A stretch of 47,096 nt of DNA, taken from a virus (Duplodnaviria > Heunggongvirae > Uroviricota > Caudoviricetes). A program made the position numbers and the translations under genes. Where the stretch lies: the IMG/VR virus record IMGVR_UViG_2802429246_000002; one strand, given 5' to 3'. Shown piece by piece: positions 160 through 27,061 of the stretch; the stretch's first letter is position 1, and each line of letters begins with the position of its first letter. The notes under the pieces are model-generated. The model saw only the letters and a list, made by a program, of their open reading frames with translations. It was not told where the DNA came from and did no database searches.

Positions 160-678
160 GTGATGAAATTTAAAAAATGTTTTCTGCCTGTGGCAATTTT
201 AGCGTCATTCACCCTGGCAGGATGCCAGTCAAATGCTGACGACCATGCCGCCGATGTCTATCAAACCGATCAACTGAATACAAAGCAAGAAACTAAAACC
301 GTTAATATTATCTCCATTCTTCCCGCAAAAGTTGCCGTAGATAACTCACAAAATAAACGGAATGCGCAAGCCTTTGGCGCACTTATTGGCGCTGTCGCAG
401 GCGGCGTTATCGGCCATAACGTTGGATCTGGTAGTAACTCCGGAACAACGGCTGGTGCAGTTGGTGGCGGAGCTGTAGGCGCGGCAGCGGGTACTATGGT
501 GAATGATAAAACCTTAGTGGAAGGTGTCTCTTTAACTTATAAGGAAGGCACCAAAGTGTACACCTCCACCCAGGTGGGTAAAGAATGCCAGTTCACAACG
601 GGTTTAGCCGTTGTTATTACCACCACTTATAACGAAACGCGTATTCAGCCAAATACAAAATGTCCTGAAAAGAGCTAA
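160..678 (+). CDS. yfgH: Outer-membrane lipoprotein, glycine-zipper type (YfgH-like)
   Basis: Signal peptide with lipobox LAGC; Gly/Ala-rich zipper GALIGAVAGGVIGHNVG; position two genes from guaA matches the E. coli yfgH-yfgI-guaA neighbourhood as recalled. Confidence 0.6.
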   Translation: MMKFKKCFLPVAILASFTLAGCQSNADDHAADVYQTDQLNTKQETKTVNIISILPAKVAVDNSQNKRNAQAFGALIGAVAGGVIGHNVGSGSNSGTTAGAVGGGAVGAAAGTMVNDKTLVEGVSLTYKEGTKVYTSTQVGKECQFTTGLAVVITTTYNETRIQPNTKCPEKS

Positions 679-693
679 CTATCAGGAGGACTC

Positions 694-1236
694 ATGAAGA
701 AAGTTTTTCTTTGCGCCGCCATATTAGCTGCTGTTAGTAGCCCGGCTTTCGCCTCTTCATTACAGGATCAACTCTCTGCGGTCGCAGAAGCTGAACAGCA
801 AGGCAAAAATGAAGAACAAAGGCAGCATGACGAATGGGTTGCGGAGCGCAACAGGGAAATCCAGCAAGAGAAGCAACGGCGCGCAAACGCTCAGGCCGCA
901 GCGAATAAAAGAGCGGCAGCAGCAGCAGCGGATAAAAAAGCTCGCCAGGATAAACGGGACGCCGAATTCACTGCGGATAAAAAGCGCGATCAAAGTTATG
1001 AAGATGAGCTGCGCAACTTAGAGATTCAGAAGCAAAAACTGGCGCTGGCAAAAGAAGAAGCGCGCGTTAAGCGTGAGAACGAATTTATCGATCAGGAACT
1101 GAAACACAAAGCAGCGCAAACCGATGTTGTACAATCTGAAGCTGACGCTAACAGGAATATGACTGAAGGTGGTCGTGATTTGATGAAAAGCGTGGGTAAA
1201 GCAGAAGAGAATAAATCAGACAGTTGGTTTAATTAA
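694..1236 (+). CDS. yfgI: Secreted coiled-coil protein (YfgI-like)
   Basis: N-terminal signal peptide AFASS; charged K/E/R/Q-rich helical body; RBS AGGAGG upstream; synteny with guaA. Confidence 0.55.
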   Translation: MKKVFLCAAILAAVSSPAFASSLQDQLSAVAEAEQQGKNEEQRQHDEWVAERNREIQQEKQRRANAQAAANKRAAAAAADKKARQDKRDAEFTADKKRDQSYEDELRNLEIQKQKLALAKEEARVKRENEFIDQELKHKAAQTDVVQSEADANRNMTEGGRDLMKSVGKAEENKSDSWFN

Positions 1237-1488: not shown

Positions 1489-1986
1489 TCAGTGCCACGA
1501 TTTTTGCTTCTTCAGTGAATCGTATTGCTGTTCGCAGGATTCTCCTGCAATCCGATACTTTTCAGCCTCAGCTGCTGTTGCGTTGTAAACTCGGTTGCTT
1601 TCTTCAAGCATGTCGGCGAGCACACCGATGACCTTGCTGGCTGGCGTGCCAGTGGGGAAAGATCCGGTATAGTGTTCGGCGAGTCGCTTGGTTTTGTCAA
1701 GCTCGGCGCGCAGGCTGTCAGCAGCGGCATTAGCATGCTCAGCATCAACACGCGCCACATCGATACGGGATTGTGCTTCACGTTCAATTTGTGTTTTCTC
1801 CTGATCACGTTGTGACCTGGCCTTATCATCAGCCTGTTTCTGATCTTCCTGTGCCTGCGCATACCCGGCGTCGTACTGACGAATGCCGTGTGCATTCCAG
1901 GCTACAACTCCTGATATGACCAGAACAGCAAGCATCGCCATGATAACCAACTGTTTCCAGTATGCTTTTGCGAATGCCCAGATCAT
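1489..1986 (-). CDS. Rz-like inner-membrane spanin (i-spanin)
   Basis: N-terminal TM helix followed by long charged coiled coil; start overlaps endolysin stop (ATGA); last gene of lysis cassette. Confidence 0.7.
1512..1763 (-). CDS. Rz1-like outer-membrane lipoprotein spanin embedded in the Rz frame
   Basis: Alternative frame inside the Rz gene encodes [17 protein letters not shown] (lipobox) followed by a Pro-rich segment; start codon choice uncertain. Confidence 0.5.
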   Translation of the reverse strand, partial: SMWRVLMLSMLMPLLTACAPSLTKPSDSPNTIPDLSPLARQPARSSVCSPTCLKKATEFTTQQQLRLKSIGLQENPANSNTIH

Positions 1987-2612
1987 AACGCCAGCACCTT
2001 ACTGGCAGTGATGTATCGCGCGCGCCGGTCATCAATGCCGTTCCGGCCACCATTGATAAGCAGAGTTACACGTGCAATATCTCCGGTATACTTCATGCAG
2101 CCTTTGCTGGAGAAGAACCACGCCGCGCTACGAGCCGCGTATTCGTCCTGCGCAAGCAGTTCAGGACTCTCCAGCAGGTCAACCTTAAGACCGTTTCCAC
2201 AGTCACGATAGTTATTCAAACCGGTAATCTGGATAAGTCCGCGCCCACGGTAGTTCCAGCCATCGCCAGGAGCATTGTTACCCATGCGTTTGCTGTACAC
2301 CAGATTGGCAATCGCTCTCTGGCGCTCAGGTGGCAATGGTGGTTCGCCTGCGCGTCGCCCCAATGCGTTGGCCTGTCCCTGAGTGAGACGCCCAGCCCGA
2401 ACAAAGTTAGCCAGTCCGCTGACGCTGTAGTTGAAATTTTCCTGCAACCGGGTGAAACCTCCAGACTCATGCCCGACCTGAGCAATAAACATTGCCTGAT
2501 CTTCTGGTTTGCTGATACCAAACTCTTTCATCGCAGAAGTTATATGCGAGAACCAGCGTGCGGCCAGCGCCTCGCTAATACCAGCAGCTCGCTGGAATTG
2601 TTTAATCTCCAT
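1983..2612 (-). CDS. Endolysin, glycoside hydrolase family 19 (chitinase-like)
   Basis: Motifs [10 protein letters not shown]...[12 protein letters not shown]...YGGRN typical of GH19 phage endolysins; start taken at MEIKQFQ (internal Met of the longer track ORF). Confidence 0.8.
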
Positions 2613-2805
2613 GTTTAGACCTCGATACTTTAAAAATTTGAACGACGTTACCGCGCGTTTTAATAACCGCAGCGAGCATGACAGCGTTGATAATGACCTC
2701 AGATAAATCCACAGCCATTGGCGTGCGGAACCAGATTGCATAGGCAACACGAACCGGAATACTGGCCGCAGCAACAATCAGGAAATAAGCAAGCCACCCC
2801 CCCAT
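2602..2805 (-). CDS. Small two-TM protein, possible holin/antiholin component
   Basis: 67 aa with two hydrophobic helices; sits between holin-like gene and endolysin; weak RBS. Confidence 0.3.
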
Positions 2806-2895
2806 CTTCGATGTTGAGATCCGTTACGCCGGAATGTGACAACACGAATTGCTATGCCAGTACAAATAACTGCATTGGTGATAAGCAAAAAAAAC

Positions 2896-3300
2896 TCATG
2901 CGTTACCATCGTCTTTTCTCCCCGGAATTAACTCGCGTGGATTATCGGAACGGTGGTAGAGCCATATACCAATACGCACAGCAACAATTGCTGACACGAA
3001 TGCGCCAGCAGAGAAAACAATCCCTTTTTCAAAAGAGTCCTGCGTGATAGTAGGGATCAGGCTGGCTATGCCGATAAGAATTGATGCTGCTGGTTTATAA
3101 AAAAGAAGGCCGCAGAGAAAGCTAAGCATCGACAAGAGTACACGACGACGAATGGGATACTCTACCGCAGAGGTAACAAAAATTACCGCTCCAGCCAAAG
3201 CCCCCAAAGCAACCTCAGGAGGAACTCCTGCTATCACCGCCGCCAGAGAACTCATGCTAAGCCACTGATTTAAAGTTTCACTGGTTAGTTGAGCTGACAT
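2896..3300 (-). CDS. Putative holin (multi-TM, charged C-terminus)
   Basis: About four predicted TM helices and a charged C-terminal tail; directly upstream of endolysin; start taken at ATG 3300 with GGTGGA RBS rather than the track GTG at 3309. Confidence 0.5.
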   Translation of the reverse strand: MSAQLTSETLNQWLSMSSLAAVIAGVPPEVALGALAGAVIFVTSAVEYPIRRRVLLSMLSFLCGLLFYKPAASILIGIASLIPTITQDSFEKGIVFSAGAFVSAIVAVRIGIWLYHRSDNPRELIPGRKDDGNA

Positions 3301-3491
3301 GTTTTCCACCGTTTATATGCATAACTACCTCCTGAACAGTAAAGCATTATGCATGATAAACCATTTATGGTTTTTTGTTACTTCAACATCGTCAATCCCC
3401 TGTTTTCATGCCGATAATAAGGCTCACCTTTTACATAACACTGAAGAAACAACAGTACAGAAATGATTCAAACTATGGAGATCGGGTTGAA

Positions 3492-6588: not shown

Positions 6589-6691
6589 GTTAAATCTCCA
6601 GATAGTCGCAGCACCCGTTGCGCCGCATATCTGGTTATTCTATTACCTGAAAAACCACATATGGATAGAAAGACTGTAAATACGAATAGAT

Positions 6692-6708
6692 ATTACCTTT
6701 CAGGTAAT
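6692..6708. promoter_or_regulatory. 17-bp inverted repeat attacct-ttc-aggtaat (operator-like site A)
   Basis: Exact 7-bp arms, reverse complements of each other; member of a family of at least 13 sites. Confidence 0.6.
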
Positions 6709-6744
6709 TTGCAAAACGTGCTGGATAGCAAACAAATTATTTGC

Positions 6745-6764
6745 TACTGTATAAATATACAGTT
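6745..6764. promoter_or_regulatory. Putative LexA (SOS) box TACTGTATAAATATACAGTT
   Basis: CTGT-N8-ACAG with AT-rich spacer, near-consensus, about 20 bp upstream of the ATG at 6784 with GGAG RBS in between. Confidence 0.7.
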
Positions 6765-6783
6765 ATTGCATGGAGAAGATAAG

Positions 6784-7041
6784 ATGCAGCAGTATCACTA
6801 TCCACTGGAAGACGGATTTACCGAAAGGATTCACACGCCGGGAGGCGTCAGATCACTGGTGGAGGGATCGCACTTGATGAAATTACTCCGGGATCTCGAT
6901 AAGGATGGATTTAATGTCGATGGCCCACTTGCCGAACTGACTGCACTGATTAACTACGTCACCAGCTCACAGATGTCTATGCAGGATCTGCAAACACATC
7001 TCGACTATTGTGCCGAACAATTACGAAAACAAACCCGGTAA
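6784..7041 (+). CDS. Small antirepressor-like protein (homolog of the C-terminal domain of the antirepressor at 8190..8885)
   Basis: 85 aa from MQQYHYPLEDGF; aligns with C-terminus of the 8190 ORF (Y..PL..G...IH.P.GV..L.E.S.LM.LL..L..DG..V.G..AELT); LexA box upstream. Confidence 0.6.
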   Translation: MQQYHYPLEDGFTERIHTPGGVRSLVEGSHLMKLLRDLDKDGFNVDGPLAELTALINYVTSSQMSMQDLQTHLDYCAEQLRKQTR

Positions 7042-7063: not shown

Positions 7064-7792
7064 CTATCGTTTCGCTTTGTGCTCGTCCCAGCACGTTTTG
7101 CACCATGCCATTAAGCCGTCCGCATTTTGATTATTAGGGTAAAAGCTGGTTCGTTTTCTGCGGACATTACAAATTGGGCACCACTTCATATGACGTGTAT
7201 TCTTTGGGCCATCGAGACACCTTGCACACCACTTAGTCAATCCATCTGGATTTTTTGACGATTTCCTGAATTTTTCATATGGAAGGTTTATTCTGCATCG
7301 CAAGCACTGCTTGCTACCGCTTGAAACTCTGTTAGCTGATTCTTCTTTTGGCGGCGATACAGAAGATATTCTTGCTGGCTCTGATACTGCCTGAGGTGCT
7401 TTTTTAAATGACTGAGACGATATGTCATCACCAGGGAATCTTCCATGATATGCCGGACGCGTTGACACTCCAGGTGGAAGCTCAGCTGTAAACGGCTTTG
7501 GCTGAATCAGTTGCCTCTCTTTTGCTAACTCCTGCTGTTTATAATATGTCTGGATTACCGCACTATCATAAGCAGGAGGTGCGGAAATATTAGGCGCATT
7601 ACCTCCAGTTTTTTGAAACTGAGTAGAGGTGTGTTCTATCACCTGTGTACGATTAATCGTTATCTCCCCATCTTCGGTCTTTATCGTTTTGTTATGATTA
7701 ACGACCGTACGATCAGAGATCTTAGTCTTGTTCTGGTTGATAACGTAAATAATCACCGTAACCACACCAACAACTATCCAGAAAACTTCCAT
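7064..7792 (-). CDS. Membrane-anchored protein with Pro-rich linker and tandem C-terminal zinc-ribbon repeats
   Basis: N-terminal TM helix; two repeats of C-x2-C-x(13-17)-DGL-x2-WC-x2-C; GAGGAA RBS; operator-like site 20 bp upstream. Confidence 0.6.
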   Translation of the reverse strand: MEVFWIVVGVVTVIIYVINQNKTKISDRTVVNHNKTIKTEDGEITINRTQVIEHTSTQFQKTGGNAPNISAPPAYDSAVIQTYYKQQELAKERQLIQPKPFTAELPPGVSTRPAYHGRFPGDDISSQSFKKAPQAVSEPARISSVSPPKEESANRVSSGSKQCLRCRINLPYEKFRKSSKNPDGLTKWCARCLDGPKNTRHMKWCPICNVRRKRTSFYPNNQNADGLMAWCKTCWDEHKAKR

Positions 7793-8189: not shown

Positions 8190-8885
8190 ATGACAGCTAC
8201 AAAAAGCACGTCCATTTTTTCTTTCGAATCCCAAGCCGATATACGGGTAATCGTCATTAATGGTGAGCCATGGTTTATCGCTTCAGATGTTTGTCGGGCT
8301 ATAGGCATAGCAAACCATCGAGATGCTGTTCGAAAACTTGATGATGATGAGAAGGGCGTCGCTTCAACCGACACCCCTGGCGGTGAGCAAGAATCGATCA
8401 TTATCTCCGAGTCAGGCCTCTACACACTGATCCTCCGCTGCCGCGATGCGGTGACACCAGGCACTATCCCCTACCGCTTTCGTAAATGGGTTACAGGTGA
8501 GGTTCTTCCTCAGATCCGCCGCACCGGAAGTTACATTAAAAACTCGCTCCCGCAGGAAGAACGCATAAAGATGGTTGCCGACCAGGTTGCCAACGCCACG
8601 GCGTCAGCAGTAATGCAGGCGATGAAGATAGAGAACAAAACCTACAGCGCCCCGCTGAAGCCAGGATACCGCAGTCTGATTCACTCGCCGTCTGGTGTTC
8701 TCGGCCTGACGGAGAACTCACTGCTGATGAATCTGCTGAACCAGTTACAGGAAGACGGGCATGATGTATCGGGCGCGGCGGCGGAGCTGACCACCATGTT
8801 CTGCTACATCGTCGGTGTGAGTAAATGCCTGCGTGATATCCAGACGCATGCGGAGTACATCAACGACAAGGCTGGGTTCTTCTGA
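8190..8885 (+). CDS. Antirepressor (Bro-N/KilA-type N-terminal domain + Ant C-terminal domain)
   Basis: N-terminal IRVIVINGEPWFIASDVCRAIG...ISESGLYTLILRCRD resembles Bro-N; C-terminal domain homologous to the 6784..7041 ORF. Confidence 0.7.
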   Translation: MTATKSTSIFSFESQADIRVIVINGEPWFIASDVCRAIGIANHRDAVRKLDDDEKGVASTDTPGGEQESIIISESGLYTLILRCRDAVTPGTIPYRFRKWVTGEVLPQIRRTGSYIKNSLPQEERIKMVADQVANATASAVMQAMKIENKTYSAPLKPGYRSLIHSPSGVLGLTENSLLMNLLNQLQEDGHDVSGAAAELTTMFCYIVGVSKCLRDIQTHAEYINDKAGFF

Positions 8886-8992: not shown

Positions 8993-9202
8993 ATGGGATT
9001 TTGGTTCGCTCGTACAAAAACGAGGGATAATGCACCCAGCCCTCAGGCAAAAAATGCAGAAGTTCCGGCGTCAGCGCAGGTTAACAAGCGTGGTGGAGTA
9101 TATATCTCATCACAGCAAATTTCTGAGCTTCCTGAGGTTAAGGAGATGCGTCGTCTCGCTGCTGCAATTGTTAAACAGGATCTTGCCACTGTAAGGAAGT
9201 AG
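8993..9202 (+). CDS. Small soluble protein (69 aa), first gene of a two-gene cargo operon
   Basis: Strong RBS GAGGAGGAG; stop overlaps start of the downstream membrane protein gene (TAGTG); no recognizable domain. Confidence 0.55.
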   Translation: MGFWFARTKTRDNAPSPQAKNAEVPASAQVNKRGGVYISSQQISELPEVKEMRRLAAAIVKQDLATVRK

Positions 9203-10068
9203 TGTTGCTAGCTCTTCTAATTATCCCAATCCTGGTTAGCGGTTATATTATGATAACCGCTAACCAGTATCATTATTTCCGTTTATACCGACACGAAGGC
9301 CAGCTTCTTTATATGAAAGTAGCGGCACTAGGTACATATTGCCTTGTTGCATCAGTAATAATTGCAGCCGCTATAAAATATAAATGGCCTGATTTTCACC
9401 TAGTTCACGATATGGTGGAAACTTTTAATGTAACATCAAAACCAGAAACAGATAGAATTTACATGTGGCTGCTTCTTCTCTCAGCCACATCCATTTGCTT
9501 CTCTTTGTGTTATGTGTCTGTTGTGTGGGTGAAAGATTTTCTTCTTGGTTGTTTTTATAAACGTGATATTTACGAGCAAAAAACAGAGGCAATGAAGGCC
9601 AGAGTACTGCGAAAAACTTACTCGCAGGGTTCTTTAGACTTACTATTGCTTGATGCTATTGAATCGGATCCTAAACGACCAATGCTGATTACTTTATCAT
9701 CAAACAAAGTGTATGTTGGAATAATAAATGGTTCTGGTGAACCAACGGAAAATCAGGGTCCGCATCAGCACATATCTTTTGTTCCTTTAATGTCAGGATA
9801 CAGGAACAAAGAAAACTTATCTGTCACATTCACTAATGCTTATCCAGGAGAAATACAGGTCAAGCGGACTGCAGCAATAAGAGGAATTAGCAGAAAGAAA
9901 GTGCCAGGACTTGAGATCATGGTGTCTATTGACGAAATAAGTTATATATCATGGTTTGATTTTGAAGTATATAAAGCAACAAATAACAAAGTAGAATCCA
10001 GGGGGCACGTTATTCGTGTTACCAAAAATGGAAGAAATATATATCAAAGAAATAGCAAAAAAGAATAG
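9202..10068 (+). CDS. Integral membrane protein (3-4 N-terminal TM helices) with ~150 aa C-terminal soluble domain; unknown function
   Basis: 288 aa; GTG start overlapping upstream stop; AT-rich codon usage; followed by intrinsic terminator. Confidence 0.65.
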   Translation: MLLALLIIPILVSGYIMITANQYHYFRLYRHEGQLLYMKVAALGTYCLVASVIIAAAIKYKWPDFHLVHDMVETFNVTSKPETDRIYMWLLLLSATSICFSLCYVSVVWVKDFLLGCFYKRDIYEQKTEAMKARVLRKTYSQGSLDLLLLDAIESDPKRPMLITLSSNKVYVGIINGSGEPTENQGPHQHISFVPLMSGYRNKENLSVTFTNAYPGEIQVKRTAAIRGISRKKVPGLEIMVSIDEISYISWFDFEVYKATNNKVESRGHVIRVTKNGRNIYQRNSKKE

Positions 10069-10088
10069 CCCGCGCCGCGGGCTTTTTT
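10068..10088 (+). terminator. Rho-independent terminator (GC stem gcccg/cgggc + T6)
   Basis: Hairpin followed by TTTTTT directly after the stop of the 9202..10068 gene. Confidence 0.6.
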
Positions 10089-10160
10089 GTGGACGAAACA
10101 AAAGTCAGTGCTACACTCATTGACGCCACATTGAGATGGCTTATAGATGGAAATTTCACA

Positions 10161-10322
10161 ATGAAAAAAGCATTTGCTGCACTGTTCGTTTTGTTGTCTC
10201 TGGTAGCTTCAACTCAGGCCTTTGCCGGTCGTTGTCAGCACGACAGCGATACTGCTGCTGACGGCTCCCGCTGCGGTGGGCGTTCTGCGGATTCCCGCCC
10301 GGGCGGCGGTGGCATCCGTTAA
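10161..10322 (+). CDS. Small secreted Cys-containing peptide (signal peptide + ~30 aa mature, Gly/Asp/Arg-rich)
   Basis: MKKAFAALFVLLSLVASTQAFAG signal peptide, AFA cleavage motif; start chosen at internal Met 10161. Confidence 0.4.
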   Translation: MKKAFAALFVLLSLVASTQAFAGRCQHDSDTAADGSRCGGRSADSRPGGGGIR

Positions 10323-10351
10323 AAACAAGGCCGCGAAAGCGTCCTGTTTGA

Positions 10352-11203
10352 TCACTGTGCAGTTTTCGCTGATCGATTTTCAGCTCTAAATTCAAGAACC
10401 GTTTCAATATTTCTTTCCTTCAGCATATCAATAACATTTTTATTCATTTGACTATCACTGGTTAATAACTGGTAAACGTTGCTTCTCTCTTTATCAGAGT
10501 TTTCTTTAACAGCTGCTTTGCATGCCAAATGCTTATTGAAATTTTCTACATCGCTAGTACAGGAATTTACGGCTGCTGATGAAATATCAGACGCTGAAGA
10601 AACACCATCATCCAAACGTTTTATAGCATTTTCTATACATGAGTTAAGGGAATAAACGACAACTGAGCGATACCCTTCAGACGCACACCATTCTAAATTT
10701 CTTGAAGGATCGAGTGGTTTTACTTCGCTGGATTGAATTAACTTGTCAAAAACTGACTTATATTCAATCTGTTTTTTATCTATAGCCCATACTTCAGTAG
10801 CTGATTTATAATTCCCCGTATGCCTATTAACATCAAATCCATGTTTTATAAGCAAATCTGCCCATGAAAGATTTATTGATTCATTGTTATGAGGCCATTT
10901 TCCTGTCAGAACCGCCCCCATAGACCCCATATATCCGCCATATGATGGTATAGCACCATGGCTCAGTAACTTCTCAGCAACCACAGGGCAATTAATTACA
11001 TAAGAGGCGTAAAGCCCATTCCATAAAGCCCCTCTATAGTAATCGCCACGATTAGGTTCTTTTAAGTCGATAGCCTTTGATAATTGTTCACACGTTTTGC
11101 ATGCATCAAAGTTATCCTTATTGCATTGCAATGAACTGGCAGCTGTAGGATTTACAGAGACTATTGAAAGCACTATGCCAAAAAACAAATTTATTTTTTT
11201 CAT
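10352..11203 (-). CDS. Secreted protein with possible ankyrin-like repeats (AT-rich cargo gene at the end of the ejection-protein operon)
   Basis: N-terminal signal peptide; segments VAEKLLSHGAIPS and WADLLIKHGFDVN loosely resemble ankyrin repeat cores; about 38% GC; starts 1 bp after the stop of the upstream gene. Confidence 0.5.
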   Translation of the reverse strand: MKKINLFFGIVLSIVSVNPTAASSLQCNKDNFDACKTCEQLSKAIDLKEPNRGDYYRGALWNGLYASYVINCPVVAEKLLSHGAIPSYGGYMGSMGAVLTGKWPHNNESINLSWADLLIKHGFDVNRHTGNYKSATEVWAIDKKQIEYKSVFDKLIQSSEVKPLDPSRNLEWCASEGYRSVVVYSLNSCIENAIKRLDDGVSSASDISSAAVNSCTSDVENFNKHLACKAAVKENSDKERSNVYQLLTSDSQMNKNVIDMLKERNIETVLEFRAENRSAKTAQ

Positions 11204-11204
11204 C

Positions 11205-14200
11205 CTATTTCATCTGCTCTTCAACTTTATTTAGTAATGGTGATATCGCCCACAGATTCTGAAAAGGTAGCATTTTACGGACAGCGTGGGTTTGCTGGCT
11301 GTCAAATTCTCCGTTAAGTACACCATTTGCAACCGTCGCGGCATCACCGCCAAGATCAAAGGTAGGACCAAGTAAAGCACCAATAGCATTACGACTCTGA
11401 AACCTTGATACCGGAGGCGCACCAAACATCGCGCCAAGACCAAACCTACCGCCGCTTATGTTCTCAACGGTATTCAGCGGCTCAGAGAGCCAGCCAAGCA
11501 TTCCGCCCCGGTCGATCCCCTCTTTCACAAGGTTATTCCAGCTGTAGTCAATATCGCGACCGCTTAACTTCTGTTTCATCATATAGACCATTGAGCCAAG
11601 CGCAATCGTGCCAAGCGCACCAAGATAGAATGCAGCATCGCCCTGCTGGATACCAGATACCAGCACCCTGTTATGCTGTGCGAAGATAAACGTTTTAAAC
11701 TGCGTGATCATCTTCCAGCCTTCTTTACTAAAAAACAGCGGGGTATCACCTACGCCAGGCGTTACAATCACTGAGTCTACATCTTTCAGCACTGCAGACT
11801 GGAAAATCTCTCTAGCGAAACGGTCATCCCACAGATGACTATGCCCGGTTAACAGCCCGTCCATATCCTCTCCGTGCTTCCCGAATTGCTCCCCGATTCG
11901 GCGCAGAACATCTTCATTGATGCCGACCTGTGCCATCTTCCGCATTTCACTTTTGGAGAGCGTGCCACCAGCAGAAACTTTGCGAGCCGCGTCAAGTATC
12001 CTCGACTGCACTATCATCCCGGACCATGATTTAAGTGCGCTGTTCCACTGATTCATCAGCGTCCAGTTACCGAATTTCTGCGTCATCCAGTTCAGACCTC
12101 GCTCAGCGGCGCTTCTCCGGCTATAGGGGTCAGTAAGATCCGCTATAGCCTTTGTACGCGTAGACAGGACATAATCAAGCCCAACGGCCATTTCTCGCAA
12201 ATCCCTGGTTGCAATTTTCACTGAGTCCATATTTTTAAGCATGCTTACCATTGGTCCGAGAGATTTTCTCAGGCCATGCTGCATCATCGGTCGCATCAGA
12301 TCAGTTGCAGCGGAGACAGTCATTCCACCAAGCAAACGGAGGAAGTTAATATTCCTAGCAACTCGCCCGGCACGAACAAAGAAACTGCGTGGATCTTGAG
12401 GTGCACCGTAAGTACCAAGCAGTCGATCACGCATAGCCGTAATATCCCTAATATCAGCCTCCCGTTGCTTCTCAAGAACTGCACGTCGTTTAGGTGTTTT
12501 AGCCTCTTTTATTAGCCGGGTATATTCCTCACTAACCTGACGGATTTGCTCCCCCATATCTTTACGGCCAAACTGCGCAGTCAGCTCAATTTCTGGTGCC
12601 ACCTGCCGGAGATAACTTTCCATGATGTAGTTAACATCTGATTCAAGAAAATCTTCTATACGCTCATCAGGAATAAGCAGCGTTCTGCTTTTAGTGAAAC
12701 CAGCCCGACCAACGAGTCTCTCTGGGATAATATCGGCTGGTACAAGCCCGGAAGGTGCGCCTATTATTTTATTCACGATCTCGTCAGCAGCGTCCTCTGC
12801 TTCCTCTCGGGATAGAGGCTCCATCTGCTTCAGTGCTCGTTCGCGGCTTGCATTCAGCCTTGTGGTTGAATTTGCCCGTTTTTGCAGTCGGCGAAGCTCA
12901 GAACGATATTTCCGTGGATTATCCAGCAACTCCATATGGCGCTGATAGACAGGAAGCTCACTCTTTGCCTGCGCTATATCATCAAGGCGTGTTTTAAGGT
13001 CAGAGCTTTCTTTCATCATTCTTGCCTGAAGTTTTTCTGATGAAGTCTCGGCCAACTCTTTTTCTATTCTTGTAAGACGCGCCTGTGTGTCAGTCTCCTG
13101 AGATATAAGCTTATTTCGTTTATCCAGTTCTTCCATGAGTAGAATTTTTTTACCAGACCATTTCTCCGCTTCAGCGATTTCACTAGCGAGAGCATCAGCG
13201 CGCGGTGCCGATTCCTCTGCAGTTTTTAGCAATGAATTTATCCTTTCAATTCGCTGACCTGCTTTGTCAGCACCTTTGGCACTAATCCCTTGTATCCAGT
13301 TGGCAATTCGCCCTCTGAATTCAGTGCGGTCGGAAAGTATCTTATCGAACTTATAAATGCGGGGAAGATAACTTTTCGCCGTCACGACATCGATATCTTC
13401 AGGAAGGATCCCCAGTTCCTGCATACGGGCTTTTGTGGTCTCGAAAATGGGGCGGATTCTGGCGGCTGCTTGTGAAACCTCAGGAATATCACTCTGATCA
13501 CCACGGCGCATAGCCATGCCAACAGCTTCATTGAAATCAATAAAGTTCATCCTCTTCACGCCGCGGGCGCTAACAGATTTGCTGTACTGCTGGTAAGCAT
13601 CACGAGTAGCTTCCATCTGCTTATAAAGCATGGCGTCGTATTGCTTAATCTTAGTCTCGACTGCTGTAAACGTAGCCAACCCCTCATCATTTTTGGCGAA
13701 GAAATAGTTATTTTCGGCAAGCTGCTGGTTAATCTGACGGGAGACAAGAGATGGTGATTGCGCCAAGCGGCCAGCAGGAGTGACACTCAACGTTTTGTTA
13801 GCAAGTCCAAGTCCAGCGAGCTGTTCCTGATCGAGTGTGGTATTGAAAACCTGAGCTGCACCAATGCTTTGAGGAGAATCCATACCTCGCAAATGATTAC
13901 CTACTGAGTTAACCACTGCCTCGCGCGCGCCAGGTCCAGCAAGTAGCTGTGCACCAGCACCAAGAATCCCACCAACGAGAGCATCAACAACAACGTTCGA
14001 TACGCTCTCCATCGGTGAGCGAGCTTCCTGAGTGGCCTGTAATGCGGCCTCTGAAGCAACACTGCCAGCAGCATTCGCCATGGCAAAACGCCCGGCTGTT
14101 TCTGCAATACGACCGCCACGAACGACAGCGCCGAACGGAATAAACATAGAAATCGCATTGAATGGATCTGCTAATCTCATTGCTACAGAAGAGACTGTAC

Positions 14201-14594
14201 CAGCAAATCCCAAGCCTGAATTGTATTCCATGTCAGCTCTCTGCTGATCGATTCGATGTTTAATTGCCATTGTTTCTTCAGGCGAACCGGAGTTGATAAA
14301 CGAATCTGCAAAATCTTCATAGCCTTTAATATCTGCTGCATCGTTATCAAATGGGTTATATCCTTCAACCCTGTCAAACTGACTGAAAGGAGCACTGGCA
14401 ATAAAGCTACCCAGCGTGTTATCTATACGAAATGCTGCTTGTCTAGACCTTTGAACGCGTTGATCACTGGTAAATGGGTTCACAGCAGAAAGCAAAGAAG
14501 GTGTTTCCATATAGAAATTACTGTCATCAGGTGCTGCTATTTGCTGAATATCCTCGCCAAGCAACTCTTTAGGATCCTGTTCATATATCGGCAT
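11205..14594 (-). CDS. Internal virion / DNA-ejection protein (large, 1129 aa)
   Basis: Size, position after tail tubular genes, coiled-coil-rich sequence; typical of podovirus core/ejection proteins. Confidence 0.6.
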   Translation of the reverse strand: MPIYEQDPKELLGEDIQQIAAPDDSNFYMETPSLLSAVNPFTSDQRVQRSRQAAFRIDNTLGSFIASAPFSQFDRVEGYNPFDNDAADIKGYEDFADSFINSGSPEETMAIKHRIDQQRADMEYNSGLGFAGTVSSVAMRLADPFNAISMFIPFGAVVRGGRIAETAGRFAMANAAGSVASEAALQATQEARSPMESVSNVVVDALVGGILGAGAQLLAGPGAREAVVNSVGNHLRGMDSPQSIGAAQVFNTTLDQEQLAGLGLANKTLSVTPAGRLAQSPSLVSRQINQQLAENNYFFAKNDEGLATFTAVETKIKQYDAMLYKQMEATRDAYQQYSKSVSARGVKRMNFIDFNEAVGMAMRRGDQSDIPEVSQAAARIRPIFETTKARMQELGILPEDIDVVTAKSYLPRIYKFDKILSDRTEFRGRIANWIQGISAKGADKAGQRIERINSLLKTAEESAPRADALASEIAEAEKWSGKKILLMEELDKRNKLISQETDTQARLTRIEKELAETSSEKLQARMMKESSDLKTRLDDIAQAKSELPVYQRHMELLDNPRKYRSELRRLQKRANSTTRLNASRERALKQMEPLSREEAEDAADEIVNKIIGAPSGLVPADIIPERLVGRAGFTKSRTLLIPDERIEDFLESDVNYIMESYLRQVAPEIELTAQFGRKDMGEQIRQVSEEYTRLIKEAKTPKRRAVLEKQREADIRDITAMRDRLLGTYGAPQDPRSFFVRAGRVARNINFLRLLGGMTVSAATDLMRPMMQHGLRKSLGPMVSMLKNMDSVKIATRDLREMAVGLDYVLSTRTKAIADLTDPYSRRSAAERGLNWMTQKFGNWTLMNQWNSALKSWSGMIVQSRILDAARKVSAGGTLSKSEMRKMAQVGINEDVLRRIGEQFGKHGEDMDGLLTGHSHLWDDRFAREIFQSAVLKDVDSVIVTPGVGDTPLFFSKEGWKMITQFKTFIFAQHNRVLVSGIQQGDAAFYLGALGTIALGSMVYMMKQKLSGRDIDYSWNNLVKEGIDRGGMLGWLSEPLNTVENISGGRFGLGAMFGAPPVSRFQSRNAIGALLGPTFDLGGDAATVANGVLNGEFDSQQTHAVRKMLPFQNLWAISPLLNKVEEQMK

Positions 14595-17341
14595 TATTTG
14601 CCCCCTGCGTATATATTGCTCGGAAGGTAATTGGCTGAACCATAACCGAATGGTTTGGTCAGATCTGGAGGAGTATATCCATCTTTATTGCTGAACTGCG
14701 GCAGCGGATTGCCTTCTCTCCGCACTCTAGCCTCATCAACACGCTGTTGCTGGAACTGAATGGTTTGCCTGTACATTGGAGATGTCAGCTGATCCGGCTT
14801 GAAACGAACAGGGAGACCATTTTCTCCAATATAATTTCTCGGTTCTATCGCTCCGTTTGCGTCAGGCTGTAAAACCATAACAGCATAACTCCTATCCCTT
14901 GCCGTAAGGCCATCAGAAACAAGTATTAAGTCCGTATCACTGCGAGGACCGCCAAAGGATTTTGATTTAAGCTCGCGTTTTTCCTGCTCCCACTGCCCCT
15001 GTATCCAGTTACCAGCACCATTATTTACTCCGTACAATGCCTCAGGTGCATACTTCATAACCTCTGCTTTGCCATTAACCGTAGAAACTCCCCAGGTGGT
15101 TCTGATCATGGCATTGGTCATTTTCTCAGCCTGTTCTGCATCGCCACCTGTCTGTACAAAGTTAGCATCGTAAATTGTCTGGTAATCTCGCTGATAGGCC
15201 GCATTTGATTTTCCTGGATCGGTAATATCCGGAGACCACGAACCAAAGGAAGTCAGACTGCTGGCGTTATTTTGTGCAGCAGTTGCCCTCGCCGCGACAT
15301 ATTTTTTGTCTCGCATGGCAGTGGAAAGCATCTGTTTCATTCGGTCATCCTGTTGGAACACCTGGCTGTAAGCCATATCAACAGCCTTATCCTCCGGCAC
15401 GCCAGCGCGGGAATAATCGTAAACCTTGCCGTAAAATGCCATCGTACTTTTATCAAGTGTTGCCGCTGCCGCCGGATTATTATCGAATAACTGACCGTAG
15501 AATTTTGCCATCGGGACAACCAGCGCAGGATCTCTTGATGTTGCTCCACTGTTAAGCATTGTTTTAACCTGAGTTGGTATCATGCCGCTTTTAGTTGTGA
15601 CGGTGACCAGTGTATTGATGCTCTGCGGATCAGATATGGAAAACGAAGGCGCAATATCCTGCGCGAAATAACGGTCTACCGCTGCCTGATTGTTTTTGTC
15701 GTTCGGGTCCAGCGGGAAGTTATTTTGCATTGAAGACACGAACCTGTTTCTTCCCTGCTGAATCTCCCAATCCCTATCCATCTCTTTAAATTTGGCCTGC
15801 ATTTTCTCCCAGCGTTGCTGGTTAGCTGCAAATCCAGGAGCGTTTGGATCCTGTGGACGTAAACGTTCAAGAATGTCTTGTCGTCCTTCTGGAGTGAGGT
15901 CTTTAGCGGCACCAATGACACCTCCATATTGTATCTGCGCCTGCATATCCTTCCACTTCATAGCGCCAATGCGCGGACCATTGGCCCGGATAAAATCGTC
16001 CTCAGAAGGTAACTGCTCAGGTTTCAATCCTTCATCAAGGGCTGAATATGCATCTTTAACTACGGTGCTAAGCTGGTCCGCATACTGCTGGCGGTACTGA
16101 TTTCTCAGCTCATTAGCCTGCCTCAATGCCTGTATTTGCATTTGAGGGCTCATAGCATCAAATGCCGCATTGCCCGTATAACGCTTAGGTGAATCAAGGT
16201 TAGTTAGACCAAGGGCTGCCGAGATACCAGTTTCAAGCTGTTCGGTGCTATAAGGCATACTGCCATTTTCGTGTTTAATAATCCCAGCAAATAAAGCAGC
16301 TAGTGTCTTTGGGTTAGAGATATCAAGCTGATCATTCTCCCCAACACCAAGCTCACCACACAATGCCCTAATATAAGCATCAGTATTATTACCATCACTA
16401 GCCGGAGCATAGCGATTAACAATCTCGCTAACGGTGTCATAGCCTTGACGCTGGTAAGACAACATATTTTTACCCAACGCGCGGATTCCATGCTCAGGGG
16501 TAGCAAACGTTGCAAAACGTCCATCGCTACCGATCTGACCTTCCCACGGGTTAGATTTGCTCGCTTCAATATTACCAGGGTTATTATTACGTAAACCACG
16601 AGCATCCAATGAATTACCATGTGACATTGCACGACTCACACCGTCAAGATCCCCTGGCTCTCCATTAACCTGAAGAAACTCGTTGTATTTTTGAGCGATA
16701 TTTCCTATCCATGCTTGCTGCCCCATTTGTTCCTTGAGCTGAGTTTTCTGCTGAACACGCCACTCATCAGGAAGCCCATGCGCATCAGCGTATTGATCAA
16801 TAGATTCAAATCGCTGCTTGGCTAAATCGACAAATGCTTGGTTATCGCTATATAGCCCCGCAGACTGAGTGACAGCCAATGCATTTCCTGACAAATACGT
16901 TTGATCTTGGAATTGCTGAAACTGCCCAACTTCATATCGACGTGCCTGATTGTAATAAGACTGCATAGACTGCTGGAGTTGAAAGGATAATTTATTCCTT
17001 TCCTCACTTTCAGGAATTGAGCCTAATAATGCCTGAGCCCTTTCCTGCATATTTTTCATAACAGCGTCACTCTGACCAAGAGCGTTTTTACCCTGTTTAG
17101 AAATCAGCCCATTTTCAGGGTTGTTAATCTGGTCATCTGCAAATTGGTTAAATTGCAGTAACGCCTCCTGGGCCATAGCAACATTCGCTTTCTGCCTGGC
17201 TTCACCATATGCCACCGCATACTGATCTGCGACATTCGCCAGCACCTGACCTGCTTGAGGAACATCGAAGGTCTGAAAACCACCGGTTTGCACACCACGA
17301 CTTTGCACCTGGCGTCCGGATGTAGTAGGAACAACAGGCAT
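14594..17341 (-). CDS. Internal virion / DNA-ejection protein (915 aa)
   Basis: Position and size; Gln/Asn-rich N-terminus; conserved-looking block around RNNNPGNIEAS in the N-terminal third. Confidence 0.6.
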   Translation of the reverse strand: MPVVPTTSGRQVQSRGVQTGGFQTFDVPQAGQVLANVADQYAVAYGEARQKANVAMAQEALLQFNQFADDQINNPENGLISKQGKNALGQSDAVMKNMQERAQALLGSIPESEERNKLSFQLQQSMQSYYNQARRYEVGQFQQFQDQTYLSGNALAVTQSAGLYSDNQAFVDLAKQRFESIDQYADAHGLPDEWRVQQKTQLKEQMGQQAWIGNIAQKYNEFLQVNGEPGDLDGVSRAMSHGNSLDARGLRNNNPGNIEASKSNPWEGQIGSDGRFATFATPEHGIRALGKNMLSYQRQGYDTVSEIVNRYAPASDGNNTDAYIRALCGELGVGENDQLDISNPKTLAALFAGIIKHENGSMPYSTEQLETGISAALGLTNLDSPKRYTGNAAFDAMSPQMQIQALRQANELRNQYRQQYADQLSTVVKDAYSALDEGLKPEQLPSEDDFIRANGPRIGAMKWKDMQAQIQYGGVIGAAKDLTPEGRQDILERLRPQDPNAPGFAANQQRWEKMQAKFKEMDRDWEIQQGRNRFVSSMQNNFPLDPNDKNNQAAVDRYFAQDIAPSFSISDPQSINTLVTVTTKSGMIPTQVKTMLNSGATSRDPALVVPMAKFYGQLFDNNPAAAATLDKSTMAFYGKVYDYSRAGVPEDKAVDMAYSQVFQQDDRMKQMLSTAMRDKKYVAARATAAQNNASSLTSFGSWSPDITDPGKSNAAYQRDYQTIYDANFVQTGGDAEQAEKMTNAMIRTTWGVSTVNGKAEVMKYAPEALYGVNNGAGNWIQGQWEQEKRELKSKSFGGPRSDTDLILVSDGLTARDRSYAVMVLQPDANGAIEPRNYIGENGLPVRFKPDQLTSPMYRQTIQFQQQRVDEARVRREGNPLPQFSNKDGYTPPDLTKPFGYGSANYLPSNIYAGGK

Positions 17342-17886
17342 CAGTAACCTCCTATTTTGAATCGGGAGTCAGAATTCATAAAACCTGAGTTAGATAACAT
17401 TGGCGTCCCACCACTAGATGTACTTCCTTTAGAGAACGGACTCCACGTCCCACCAAACATCTGGTACGCACCGTATGCCTTCAGAGGCGCAGTGAGCAAT
17501 GTTGTTGCTGCTCCCACATTCCCCTGTTTACGGGCTGAACTGGCTTCTGCTTTATAGTTGGCAGCCTGAACCTGATAACCGTAAGCCTCGCGTTGCGCGT
17601 TATTCACCGTCGTCAGCGAATCAAGAGCGCCAAACTGAGCAGTGTCACCAAATATATCCAGCGCGTTACCGGTAGATAAATCAGCGCCGGTAGCCCCCAT
17701 TGTCGCCGCCTGTGTACCAAGCCGCTGTCGGGTCTCTCTGCGCCGTTGCTCAGCTTCAGCGTTACCCCTGTTTATTGCATCATTTGCCTGAGCTGTGGCT
17801 ATATCTGCGTTCGCTTCTGCAACCTTCGAGGCATACTTTCCCTGTTGGTACTGGGTGTATGCCTGAATGCCACTCATGGCGAGCAT
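17341..17886 (-). CDS. Internal virion protein (small, Ala/Gln-rich)
   Basis: 181 aa, low-complexity helical protein within the virion-core gene block. Confidence 0.5.
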   Translation of the reverse strand: MLAMSGIQAYTQYQQGKYASKVAEANADIATAQANDAINRGNAEAEQRRRETRQRLGTQAATMGATGADLSTGNALDIFGDTAQFGALDSLTTVNNAQREAYGYQVQAANYKAEASSARKQGNVGAATTLLTAPLKAYGAYQMFGGTWSPFSKGSTSSGGTPMLSNSGFMNSDSRFKIGGY

Positions 17887-26984: not shown

Positions 26985-27061
26985 GTGGCATTAGCTCAGC
27001 TGGACAGAGCAACCGCCTTCTAAGCGGTTGGTCGCAGGTTCGAATCCTGCATGCCACGCCA
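26985..27061 (+). tRNA. tRNA-Arg (anticodon UCU), phage-encoded
   Basis: Manual fold: acceptor GTGGCAT/ATGCCAC, D-stem GCTC/GAGC, anticodon stem ACCGC/GCGGT with loop CTTCTAA, T-stem GCAGG/CCTGC with loop TTCGAAT, discriminator G, encoded CCA; sequence differs from E. coli argU. Confidence 0.85.

Follow-up and report, generated by a model that had tools for sequence, protein, structure and literature searches.

Bacterial ankyrin repeat (ANK) proteins with Sec signals can function in the periplasm, AnkB of Pseudomonas aeruginosa being a case in point. RARP-1 of Rickettsia parkeri is another Sec-signal ANK protein found in the periplasm (bioRxiv 10.1101/2022.02.23.481736). In Bdellovibrio bacteriovorus, the periplasmic ankyrin protein Bd3460 serves self-protection by neutralizing DD-endopeptidases (PMC4686830), and in Enterobacter cloacae the immunity protein Tli, which has six ANK repeats, neutralizes Tle, a type VI secretion system (T6SS) lipase of the Tle6 group (PMC11470151). 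On the phage side, T4 Spackle is a periplasmic protein that inhibits the gp5 lysozyme of superinfecting phage (PMC7677548), and the exclusion factor Llp of phage T5 is an outer-membrane lipoprotein masking the receptor FhuA (PMC9586334). Here we analyze a 283-aa protein encoded by a prophage in a 47,096-nt stretch of DNA (IMG/VR record IMGVR_UViG_2802429246_000002; hereafter the window), for which the original prediction was a secreted, ankyrin-like product. It is very probable that the protein is a real accessory protein, ANK-like and exported. Phage accessory genes for periplasmic binders of the repeat-protein class are known as a kind. What appears to be undescribed is the form seen here, in which a disulfide-capped degenerate ANK domain is joined to a helical domain with an LDDGxSxASD motif and the gene holds a fixed place as the last of a T7-type ejection operon.

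Each of the systems above resembles the 283-aa protein in part. As an ankyrin protein that binds and inhibits cell-wall-cutting entry enzymes, Bd3460 offers the best functional analogy for a protein encoded beside a transglycosylase-containing penetration module. However, the gene for Bd3460 adjoins that of its target endopeptidase, and co-crystal structures have shown the binding, whereas the 283-aa protein has degenerate, disulfide-capped repeats and carries an extra C-terminal domain. No specific sequence relationship between the two was found, Bd3460 being absent from the PDB profile matches. Tli, likewise an Enterobacterales ANK protein with a signal sequence, neutralizes a periplasm-acting enzyme via its inner helical layer. 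Its six repeats are canonical and its gene is always paired with the lipase gene, whereas the 283-aa protein has three degenerate repeats, no adjacent toxin and a phage-borne gene; again, no specific similarity to Tli was found. Spackle, a small helical Sec-exported phage protein that acts as a stoichiometric inhibitor of the cell-wall-degrading domain of the incoming phage, exemplifies the mechanism proposed below. It is the product of an early gene of a virulent myovirus, in contrast to the 283-aa gene, which closes a late operon in a temperate podophage and encodes an ANK-like module; no homology or fold match links the two proteins. The gene for Llp is located beside the structural gene whose function it counteracts, and that for Cor of phi80 and HK022 similarly so, a layout that sets a precedent for an exclusion factor adjoining ejection-protein genes. 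Yet Llp and Cor are outer-membrane lipoproteins masking FhuA, whereas the 283-aa protein lacks a lipobox and does not resemble them. Finally, RARP-1 and AnkB are chromosomal housekeeping or fitness factors, whereas the 283-aa gene is phage-encoded.

Terminal cistron of the ejection-protein operon

The window is a segment of the Escherichia coli chromosome with a ~40-kb prophage adjoining guaA (41911..43488). The prophage belongs to a temperate podophage type in which an epsilon15-type major capsid protein (PF20911) and tailspike N-terminus are combined with a T7-type portal and core. The 283-aa gene is the terminal cistron of the operon for the gp14/gp15/gp16-like core (ejection) proteins (Table 1), to which the original prediction had assigned it. 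The T7_gp14 match of the first ejection protein (181 aa) falls below the Pfam curated cut-off; its homologue is named "virion core protein, T7 gp14 family" in RefSeq, where the proteins of a sister prophage are annotated likewise. The second, the 915-aa gp15-like protein, has at residues 246-381 a PHROG match described as "tail injection transglycosylase", and its homologue in TL-2011b is annotated as a lytic transglycosylase. It is a candidate for a periplasm-acting partner or target of the 283-aa protein. A 100% identical copy of the 283-aa gene occupies the same place in Escherichia phage EC.W1-9, from sewage. EC.W1-9 is presented as an isolated podovirus and is being explored for therapy, the topic of its preprint being phage-antibiotic combinations (bioRxiv 10.1101/2024.06.28.601134).

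The gene is a 283-codon open reading frame (ORF) on the minus strand with an ATG start, its end coordinate including the stop codon (ORF finder). A single base (position 11204) lies between the TAG of the 1129-aa ORF and the ATG, so the start 1 nt past the ejection-protein stop, predicted with the strand left unstated, is borne out on the minus strand. In the direction of the genes the junction reads ...CAGATGAAATAG G ATGAAAAAAATA (in shorter form, ...GAGCAGATGAAATAG-G-ATGAAAAAAATA). The TAG-N-ATG arrangement is shared by E. coli and Klebsiella, in which translation of the 283-aa gene is probably coupled to that of the gp16-like gene; in distant loci a Shine-Dalgarno sequence precedes the ATG. 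The one-base gap leaves no space for a promoter, and a crude consensus scan of the minus strand from 9000 to 12000 predicted none of a sigma-70-like type; the late structural transcript therefore probably carries the 283-aa gene as well. The operon may end at a possible bidirectional terminator (Table 1), the hairpin of which has a folding energy no better than that of shuffled sequences (z 0.16; RNA fold). Cleaner hairpins are found at the same spot in Klebsiella and Morganella loci, the E. coli one being weak.

The full-length family is small, comprising 22 relatives among 5.8 billion protein clusters, with identities down to ~40%. It is confined to prophages of Enterobacterales, the hosts being E. 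coli, Klebsiella, Serratia, Morganella and Providencia. The protein matches PHROG 6118 over its full length (E 1.1e-200), and a PHROGs search returned this function-unknown family and nothing else. Hmmscan gave no Pfam family at E <= 1, nothing was found in NCBIfam or PADLOC, and a literature search yielded no paper describing the protein. An end-to-end alignment of sixteen full-length sequences has 53 invariant columns, eight of them cysteines. For two E. coli alleles the ratio of nonsynonymous to synonymous substitution rates (dN/dS, Nei-Gojobori) is 0.157, and comparisons of E. coli with Klebsiella give 0.092-0.107, values comparable to those of the neighbouring structural genes. The gene is thus real and under purifying selection; a spurious or decaying ORF was rejected on these ratios (0.09-0.16) and on the preservation of full length across four genera. 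As side observations on its mosaic history, synonymous divergence (dS) within E. coli is 0.115 for this gene and 3-10 times lower for the genes beside it, and between E. coli and Klebsiella that of the gene is the lower one (0.83 vs 1.3-1.5).

Relative to E. coli, the 283-aa protein is 86% identical in Klebsiella, 58% in Serratia and 43% in Morganella. The corresponding figures are 82%, 58% and 44% for the gp15-like protein, and 90%, 79% and 56% for the gp16-like protein; the 283-aa protein has therefore diverged about as much as its gp15-like neighbour. The gene follows a same-strand gp16-like gene of 1129-1131 aa in Morganella, Serratia and Klebsiella, with gaps of 31, 11 and 1 nt, respectively. 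In IMG/VR, the C-terminus of a gp16-like protein is encoded upstream in all 30 viral contigs having a relative, abutting it in 29 and lying ~180 nt off in the last (L057). Because of this constant position and of a divergence matching that of its neighbours, the gene has evidently long travelled with the ejection module. A recent single horizontal acquisition was rejected, given universal synteny in the loci inspected and the matching divergence. The AT-richness noted in the original prediction is real: GC content is 36.7% (0.367) vs 0.468 and 0.480 in the two upstream genes, and GC at third codon positions (GC3) is 0.28 vs 0.42-0.43. Over four lineages, GC ranges from 0.35 to 0.40 vs 0.47-0.54 in the flanks, and GC3 from 0.28 to 0.38 vs 0.42-0.59; the low GC3 persists in the phages of E. 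coli, Klebsiella, Serratia and Morganella (the window plus the orthologues in L010, L008 and L005), and the flanks track host composition.

A late cistron in this place could be a periplasmic helper of the phage's own lytic cycle, adjusting the moment of lysis, limiting damage to the envelope as long as assembly is under way, sealing or neutralizing the ejectosome that the infecting particle has left in the envelope, or keeping progeny from wasting their DNA on the debris of lysed cells. Such a role would suit a gene that ends the late structural operon, has no space for a promoter in front of it and seems to be translationally coupled; its retention in the most compact arrangement seen (Morganella) and a divergence about equal to that of the gp15-like transglycosylase protein would fit as well. 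Nevertheless, the lysis cassette lies elsewhere in the window (ORFs at ~1489..3309, annotated in EC.W1-9 as holin, endolysin and endopeptidase), relatives without the 283-aa gene have been deposited as complete phage genomes, and Pfam and PHROGs searches found no similarity to antiholins, spanins or other lysis regulators. We regard a lytic-cycle role as unlikely.

Predicted export signal and two-domain architecture

The N-terminus of the protein consists of an MKK n-region, the h-region INLFFGIVLSIVSV (mean Kyte-Doolittle value 2.73 over 12 residues) and an NPTAAS c-region with small residues at -3/-1. This assessment is a rule-based reading, in which the cleavage site is inferred. The n-h-c layout is present in 16 of 16 aligned orthologues, the distant ones having clean ALA-K and AIA-G sites, so that the "clear signal peptide" of the original prediction stands as a predicted Sec export signal. 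A lipobox is missing, the first Cys being preceded by Q (by Q, K or E across orthologues), and a lipoprotein reading was rejected on this ground. The mature part contains an even number of cysteines, eight, all invariant in the orthologues (C27, C35, C38, C72, C173, C189, C215 and C228). From these features we infer that the protein is exported by Sec and oxidized to four disulfides, and hence would stay soluble in the periplasm.

A profile search of 1.84 billion representative proteins revealed that the 283-aa protein is a fusion of two modules which also occur independently, each of them alone in signal-peptide proteins of other Proteobacteria. The first (residues ~1-155) recurs as standalone proteins of 155-190 aa, all with a signal peptide and with the first four cysteines (C27, C35, C38 and C72); in further proteins it is joined to TPR repeats, true ANK arrays or different C-terminal regions. 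The second (residues ~160-283) recurs in signal-peptide proteins of 110-250 aa, which share a C...LDDG(V/I)SPASDIA...C motif, corresponding to C189 and C215, and a terminal VLExR motif; it is also fused to Sel1 repeats (P0143). Neither module matches Pfam or NCBIfam, and a profile of the C-domain family gave nothing against the PDB at E <= 10. In the AlphaFold2 model, the predicted local distance difference test score (pLDDT) is ~60-87 in the N-terminal half, and the five-helix C-terminal bundle is confidently modelled (pLDDT 94.7). This second, better-modelled half, overlooked in the original prediction, is a separate undescribed secreted domain. Altogether, neither the protein nor either of its domains is described by any paper, Pfam family or NCBIfam model.

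The ankyrin assignment had been made tentatively, on segments that are indeed present (LLSHGA, residues 79-84; LLIKHGFDVN, residues 117-126). Four independent lines point to a degenerate ANK stack at residues ~55-158, with helix pairs at 54-61/73-81, 96-100/108-120 and 135-141/149-158, that is, to an ankyrin-like, remotely homologous domain. First, the family profile matches P0059, a Pfam-verified ANK protein, with E 1.4e-9 and in seven stretches at query positions 65-127; it also matches P0076, likewise Pfam-checked, and P0078 and P0085 show the same multi-stretch pattern. The repeated alignments to P0059 place VAEKLLSNGA...WADLLIKHGLDVN on successive ANK outer helices and loops. Second, almost all PDB matches of the N-domain profile are ANK proteins or ANK-like repeat designs, the best being 8fre (E 2.9e-4), 1n11 (1.9e-3) and ankyrin-1 (1.9e-3 to 4e-3). 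Third, two of 20 standalone N-domain relatives match PF00023 by themselves (best E 7.3e-5). Fourth, hhalign against a consensus designed ankyrin repeat protein (DARPin), whose sequence was entered by hand, gave a probability of 82.5% and E 9.8e-6, with W61-L155 in register with two internal repeats and the C-cap.

The protein itself remains below the curated score of all Pfam Ank models (PF00023, PF12796, PF13637, PF13857 and PF13606), and by Pfam's own criterion it is not a member of the Ank family, since no match was obtained even at E <= 1. Direct reading shows that the canonical TPLH / GxTPLHxAA inner-helix motif is absent, ALWNGLYASY and GSMGAVLTGKW standing at the equivalent positions. 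With the canonical family (PF00023 / PF12796) the domain shares a predicted helix-turn-helix stacking and the outer-helix and loop signatures xVAxxLLxxGAxP..GG and LLxxHGxDVN; it differs in having WNGLY for TPLH, a WPHNN insertion in repeat 2 and a CxxxxxxxCxxC...C disulfide cap, and in its predicted periplasmic location, canonical members being cytoplasmic or eukaryote-directed. Thus, of the repeat and profile search proposed in the original prediction, the homology in repeat register materialized and the match of the protein itself to ANK Pfam models did not; the tentative ankyrin call was right, with support at the profile level and, more tentatively, at the fold level. Of the two findings that had been named as speaking against the original prediction, lack of a predicted ankyrin fold together with conservation as a virion component in related phages, neither emerged.

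ANK repeats are typical of effectors aimed at eukaryotes, and disulfide-rich proteins suit an extracellular milieu. The protein could accordingly be imagined as an anti-eukaryotic virulence or colonization factor which, after Sec export, leaves the cell by type II secretion, vesicles or phage lysis and whose ANK domain binds a protein of the animal host; the prophage does occur in extraintestinal pathogenic lineages (avian pathogenic E. coli O18, IHE3034 and ST131 strains). Nothing points to secretion past the periplasm, however, and the distribution tracks the phage rather than host pathotypes. For each domain there are homologues in environmental Burkholderiaceae and metagenomes, with no link to an animal host. 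Furthermore, the ANK effectors known to us use type III or type IV secretion systems and lack Sec signal peptides. All in all, a host-directed role seems quite improbable.

Table 1. Positions in the window of the 283-aa gene, its encoded parts and associated features.
Feature	Coordinates	Strand	Remarks
Exported ankyrin-like two-domain protein (export predicted)	10352..11203	-	Complete coding sequence, 283 aa + stop; PHROG 6118 (function unknown)
Predicted Sec (signal peptidase I) signal peptide, residues 1-23 (MKKINLFFGIVLSIVSVNPTAAS); no lipobox	11135..11203	-	n-h-c pattern in all 16 orthologues
N-terminal domain, residues 24-165: Cys-rich cap (C27, C35, C38 paired with C72), then three degenerate ankyrin-like repeats	10709..11134	-	
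Ankyrin-like repeat stack, residues ~55-158, including VAEKLLSHGA and WADLLIKHGFDVN	10730..11041	-	
C-terminal domain, residues 166-283: helical bundle, invariant C189...LDDGxSxASD...C215, Cys pair C173/C228, terminal VLExR	10355..10708	-	
Possible bidirectional terminator ending the operon: imperfect hairpin, then U-run (AAACAGGACGCUUUCGCGGCCUUGUUUUU)	10323..10349	.	Between the stop codon and a convergent small gene
T7-gp16-like internal virion (ejection) protein, 1129 aa	11205..14594	-	PHROG 342 "internal virion protein", E 3.9e-233
gp15-like internal virion protein, 915 aa, lytic-transglycosylase region at residues ~243-395	14594..17341	-	PHROG 1044, 873, 7182
T7 gp14-family core protein, 181 aa, first of three ejection proteins in the operon	17341..17886	-	Pfam T7_gp14, E 3.4e-5
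Integrase	40468..41718		

A replaceable accessory gene

Among 5426 complete E. coli genomes, 120 contain this gp16 3' end and 106 the 283-aa gene. The gene is missing from ~14 of the 120, and the two such prophages that were inspected carry an unrelated two-gene cassette (146 and 149 aa) in its stead. The Klebsiella phages ST512-KPC3phi13.3 and Kp4865-1, whose gp16 is 91.5-91.7% identical, also lack the gene, the slot in ST512-KPC3phi13.3 being filled by an unrelated 204-aa ORF with no obvious signal peptide. It is absent as well from TL-2011b, where no same-strand gene follows gp16, and from distant Vibrio phages, in which gp16 is directly followed by a large hypothetical ORF (948 or 704 aa) that presumably encodes a tail protein, by analogy with T7 gp17. 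Homology breaks off sharply at the gp16 stop codon and at ~10347, and the DNA beyond ~10347 is common to 458 of the 5426 genomes; because this downstream DNA is so shared, the gene can be placed at the proximal edge of a hypervariable accessory island extending from gp16 to the tailspike. Hence the gene is dispensable and can be replaced by unrelated cassettes. It has moron-like traits, namely a distinct base composition and presence/absence polymorphism at a fixed site. The arrangement is most compact in Morganella, with gp16, the orthologue of the 283-aa gene, an 83-aa gene on the opposite strand and the tailspike gene. Neither the slot cassettes (146, 149 and 204 aa) nor the Serratia and Morganella neighbours have an informative Pfam or PADLOC match, so that "guilt by slot" is uninformative.

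These absences bear on whether the protein is packaged in the virion as a fourth internal core protein and delivered into the periplasm of the newly infected cell. The position of the gene, its tight coupling to gp16 and its co-divergence with the core proteins would agree with packaging. On the other hand, capsids assemble in the cytoplasm, from which the protein would be withdrawn by its conserved, cleavable Sec signal, and both domains are found in secreted proteins unrelated to phages. Moreover, since the gene is missing or replaced in the face of a 95-99% identical gp16 3' end, and missing from two Klebsiella phage genomes, its product is not a required structural component. The "ejected effector" option of the original prediction is consequently disfavoured by the conserved signal peptide and paired cysteines, by signal peptides on the non-phage homologues of both domains and by the absence of the gene from close relatives; we consider packaging very improbable.

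Further genes of the island merit mention. Converging on the 283-aa gene and sharing the intergenic hairpin with it, a gene at 10161..10322 (+; a longer GTG ORF starts at 10089) encodes a 53-aa mini-protein with a signal peptide (MKKAFAALFVLLSLVASTQAFA|GRCQHDSD...), which belongs to PHROG 14503 and is annotated as "transmembrane anchored protein". The region of this mini-protein is present in 458 of the 5426 complete E. coli genomes, far more than the 106 with the 283-aa gene. The ORF at 9202..10068 (+; 288 aa, GC 0.37) matches PHROG 3630 (unknown) and nothing in Pfam or PADLOC; its hydrophobic N-terminus suggests a membrane protein. As sister prophages have DUF4760, DUF2335 or a YafO-family toxin there, this locus is a second swap-in accessory slot.

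Candidate functions and significance

By analogy with the ankyrin proteins described above, our best guess for the function of the 283-aa protein is protein binding or inhibition in the periplasm. As a tentative leading hypothesis, we put forward superinfection exclusion acting on an ejectosome of the gp14/15/16 type or on its transglycosylase; the exclusion factor acting in the periplasm, one option of the original prediction, thus stays plausible. In the manner of ankyrin proteins already known from the periplasm, the 283-aa protein would be a stoichiometric binder or inhibitor, recognition being supplied by the ANK surface. Its target would be the envelope-crossing machinery of incoming phages of the same type, either the periplasm-spanning gp14/15/16-like ejectosome or the lytic-transglycosylase domain, and the outcome would be superinfection exclusion analogous to that by T4 Spackle. 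A bolder version, in which this would be the first ankyrin-based exclusion factor and the first aimed at a T7-type ejectosome, blocking genome delivery by related podophages, with co-divergence reflecting matched specificity and the LDDGxSxASD domain constituting a new periplasmic anti-phage module, appears doubtful.

The genomic contexts of standalone C-domain homologues (locus coordinates L024 6001..6534 and L025 6001..6729) contain hints toward defence or exclusion. P0120, a standalone C-terminal LDDGVSPASDIA domain on an ENA ERZ1426682 contig, is encoded directly downstream of a CI-repressor gene and opposite cro, within a prophage immunity region. A position downstream of the CI-repressor gene is typical of genes expressed in the lysogen. 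The gene for P0121 lies in a defence island, among TIR, AAA_15, Mrr, PLD and HsdR genes, and that for P0151 adjoins integrase-like and resolvase genes. These surroundings hint that the C-domain may take part in conflicts of mobile elements. The contigs of the closest standalone N-domain proteins (P0023 and P0089) are ~1 kb or less and their neighbours uninformative.

A number of observations weigh against superinfection exclusion. A Foldseek search with the full model found no match in the PDB below E 1, and the model of the N-domain, with a pLDDT of 60-87, is only moderately confident. No similarity was detected to any known exclusion factor (T4 Spackle, P1 Sim, T5 Llp, Cor). Any co-adaptation with gp16 must be optional, because there are prophages in which the gp16 3' end is 95-99% identical in DNA and the 283-aa gene is lacking. 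An exclusion factor of a temperate phage usually needs to be expressed in the lysogen, late-only expression bringing a smaller benefit; expression of the 283-aa gene in the lysogen is unsupported, since the crude scan of 9000..12000 yielded no sigma-70-like promoter for its strand. Two copies of the gene coexist in at least one E. coli genome, and strong homotypic exclusion would make such double carriage rarer. Finally, the standalone N-domains of Burkholderiaceae occur in a conserved chromosomal, non-phage neighbourhood, next to genes for a Lon-like protease, Usp, an esterase and a PLP decarboxylase; given these ordinary surroundings, the N-domain is not specific to phage conflict.

That same chromosomal, phage-independent occurrence of N-domain homologues would fit a protein of lysogenic conversion, a periplasmic ANK-like orphan immunity factor which shields the lysogen from periplasm-acting toxins or enzymes of competitors (T6SS lipases, peptidoglycan hydrolases), the target being unrelated to phages. 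Periplasmic ANK precedents are documented in Tli vs the Tle lipase (PMC11470151) and in Bd3460 vs DD-endopeptidases (PMC4686830), and the AT-rich gene lies at the edge of a variable island with other cargo (YafO toxin, DUF4760, antirepressors). We judge orphan immunity to be rather unlikely. The probability left after superinfection exclusion and the four rival explanations belongs to something else.

Other parts of the window yielded observations in their own right. The prophage contains a tRNA-Arg gene (anticodon TCT; 26985..27061, +) between the structural and terminase regions. By the lysis genes, at the left edge of the window, 160..678 (+) encodes a 172-aa glycine-zipper protein with a sub-threshold TraT-like Pfam match, and 694..1236 (+) a 180-aa DUF5384 protein; both look envelope-associated and may be further envelope-directed cargo or host genes. 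The 242-aa product of 7064..7792 (-) combines a hydrophobic N-terminal stretch, a possible membrane anchor, with repeated CxxC motifs at the C-terminus and matches endonuclease VII, HNH and Lar-like PHROGs as well as Pfam Stc1 (below cut-off), an odd combination for a nuclease-like module. A 126-aa ORF (6661..7041, +) and a Bro-N antirepressor gene (8190..8885, +), 1.2 kb apart, share by eye a C-terminal module (...LMxLLxxLxxDGxxVxGxxAELTxxxxY...DxQTHxxY), which suggests that the antirepressor C-domain was duplicated or exchanged.

In conclusion, the identification of the 283-aa protein is solid as an annotation and comes with a cleanly testable hypothesis; there is nothing in it yet to surprise a specialist. 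If the protein turned out to be a generic accessory binder, the gain would be a modest improvement in annotation. Whatever its function, the analysis defines two uncharacterized families of secreted domains, one a degenerate ANK domain with a Cys cap and the other a helical bundle with the LDDGxSxASD motif; both span Proteobacteria and have no Pfam or NCBIfam model. If the exclusion reading is true, the protein would represent a compact, easily tested phage defence of the periplasmic step of genome delivery, and a new use of the ankyrin scaffold. To our knowledge, very few mechanisms defend this step, T4 Spackle being the main one. Extraintestinal pathogenic E. coli and Klebsiella commonly carry prophages of this family, so that exclusion of related phages would matter for phage cocktails.

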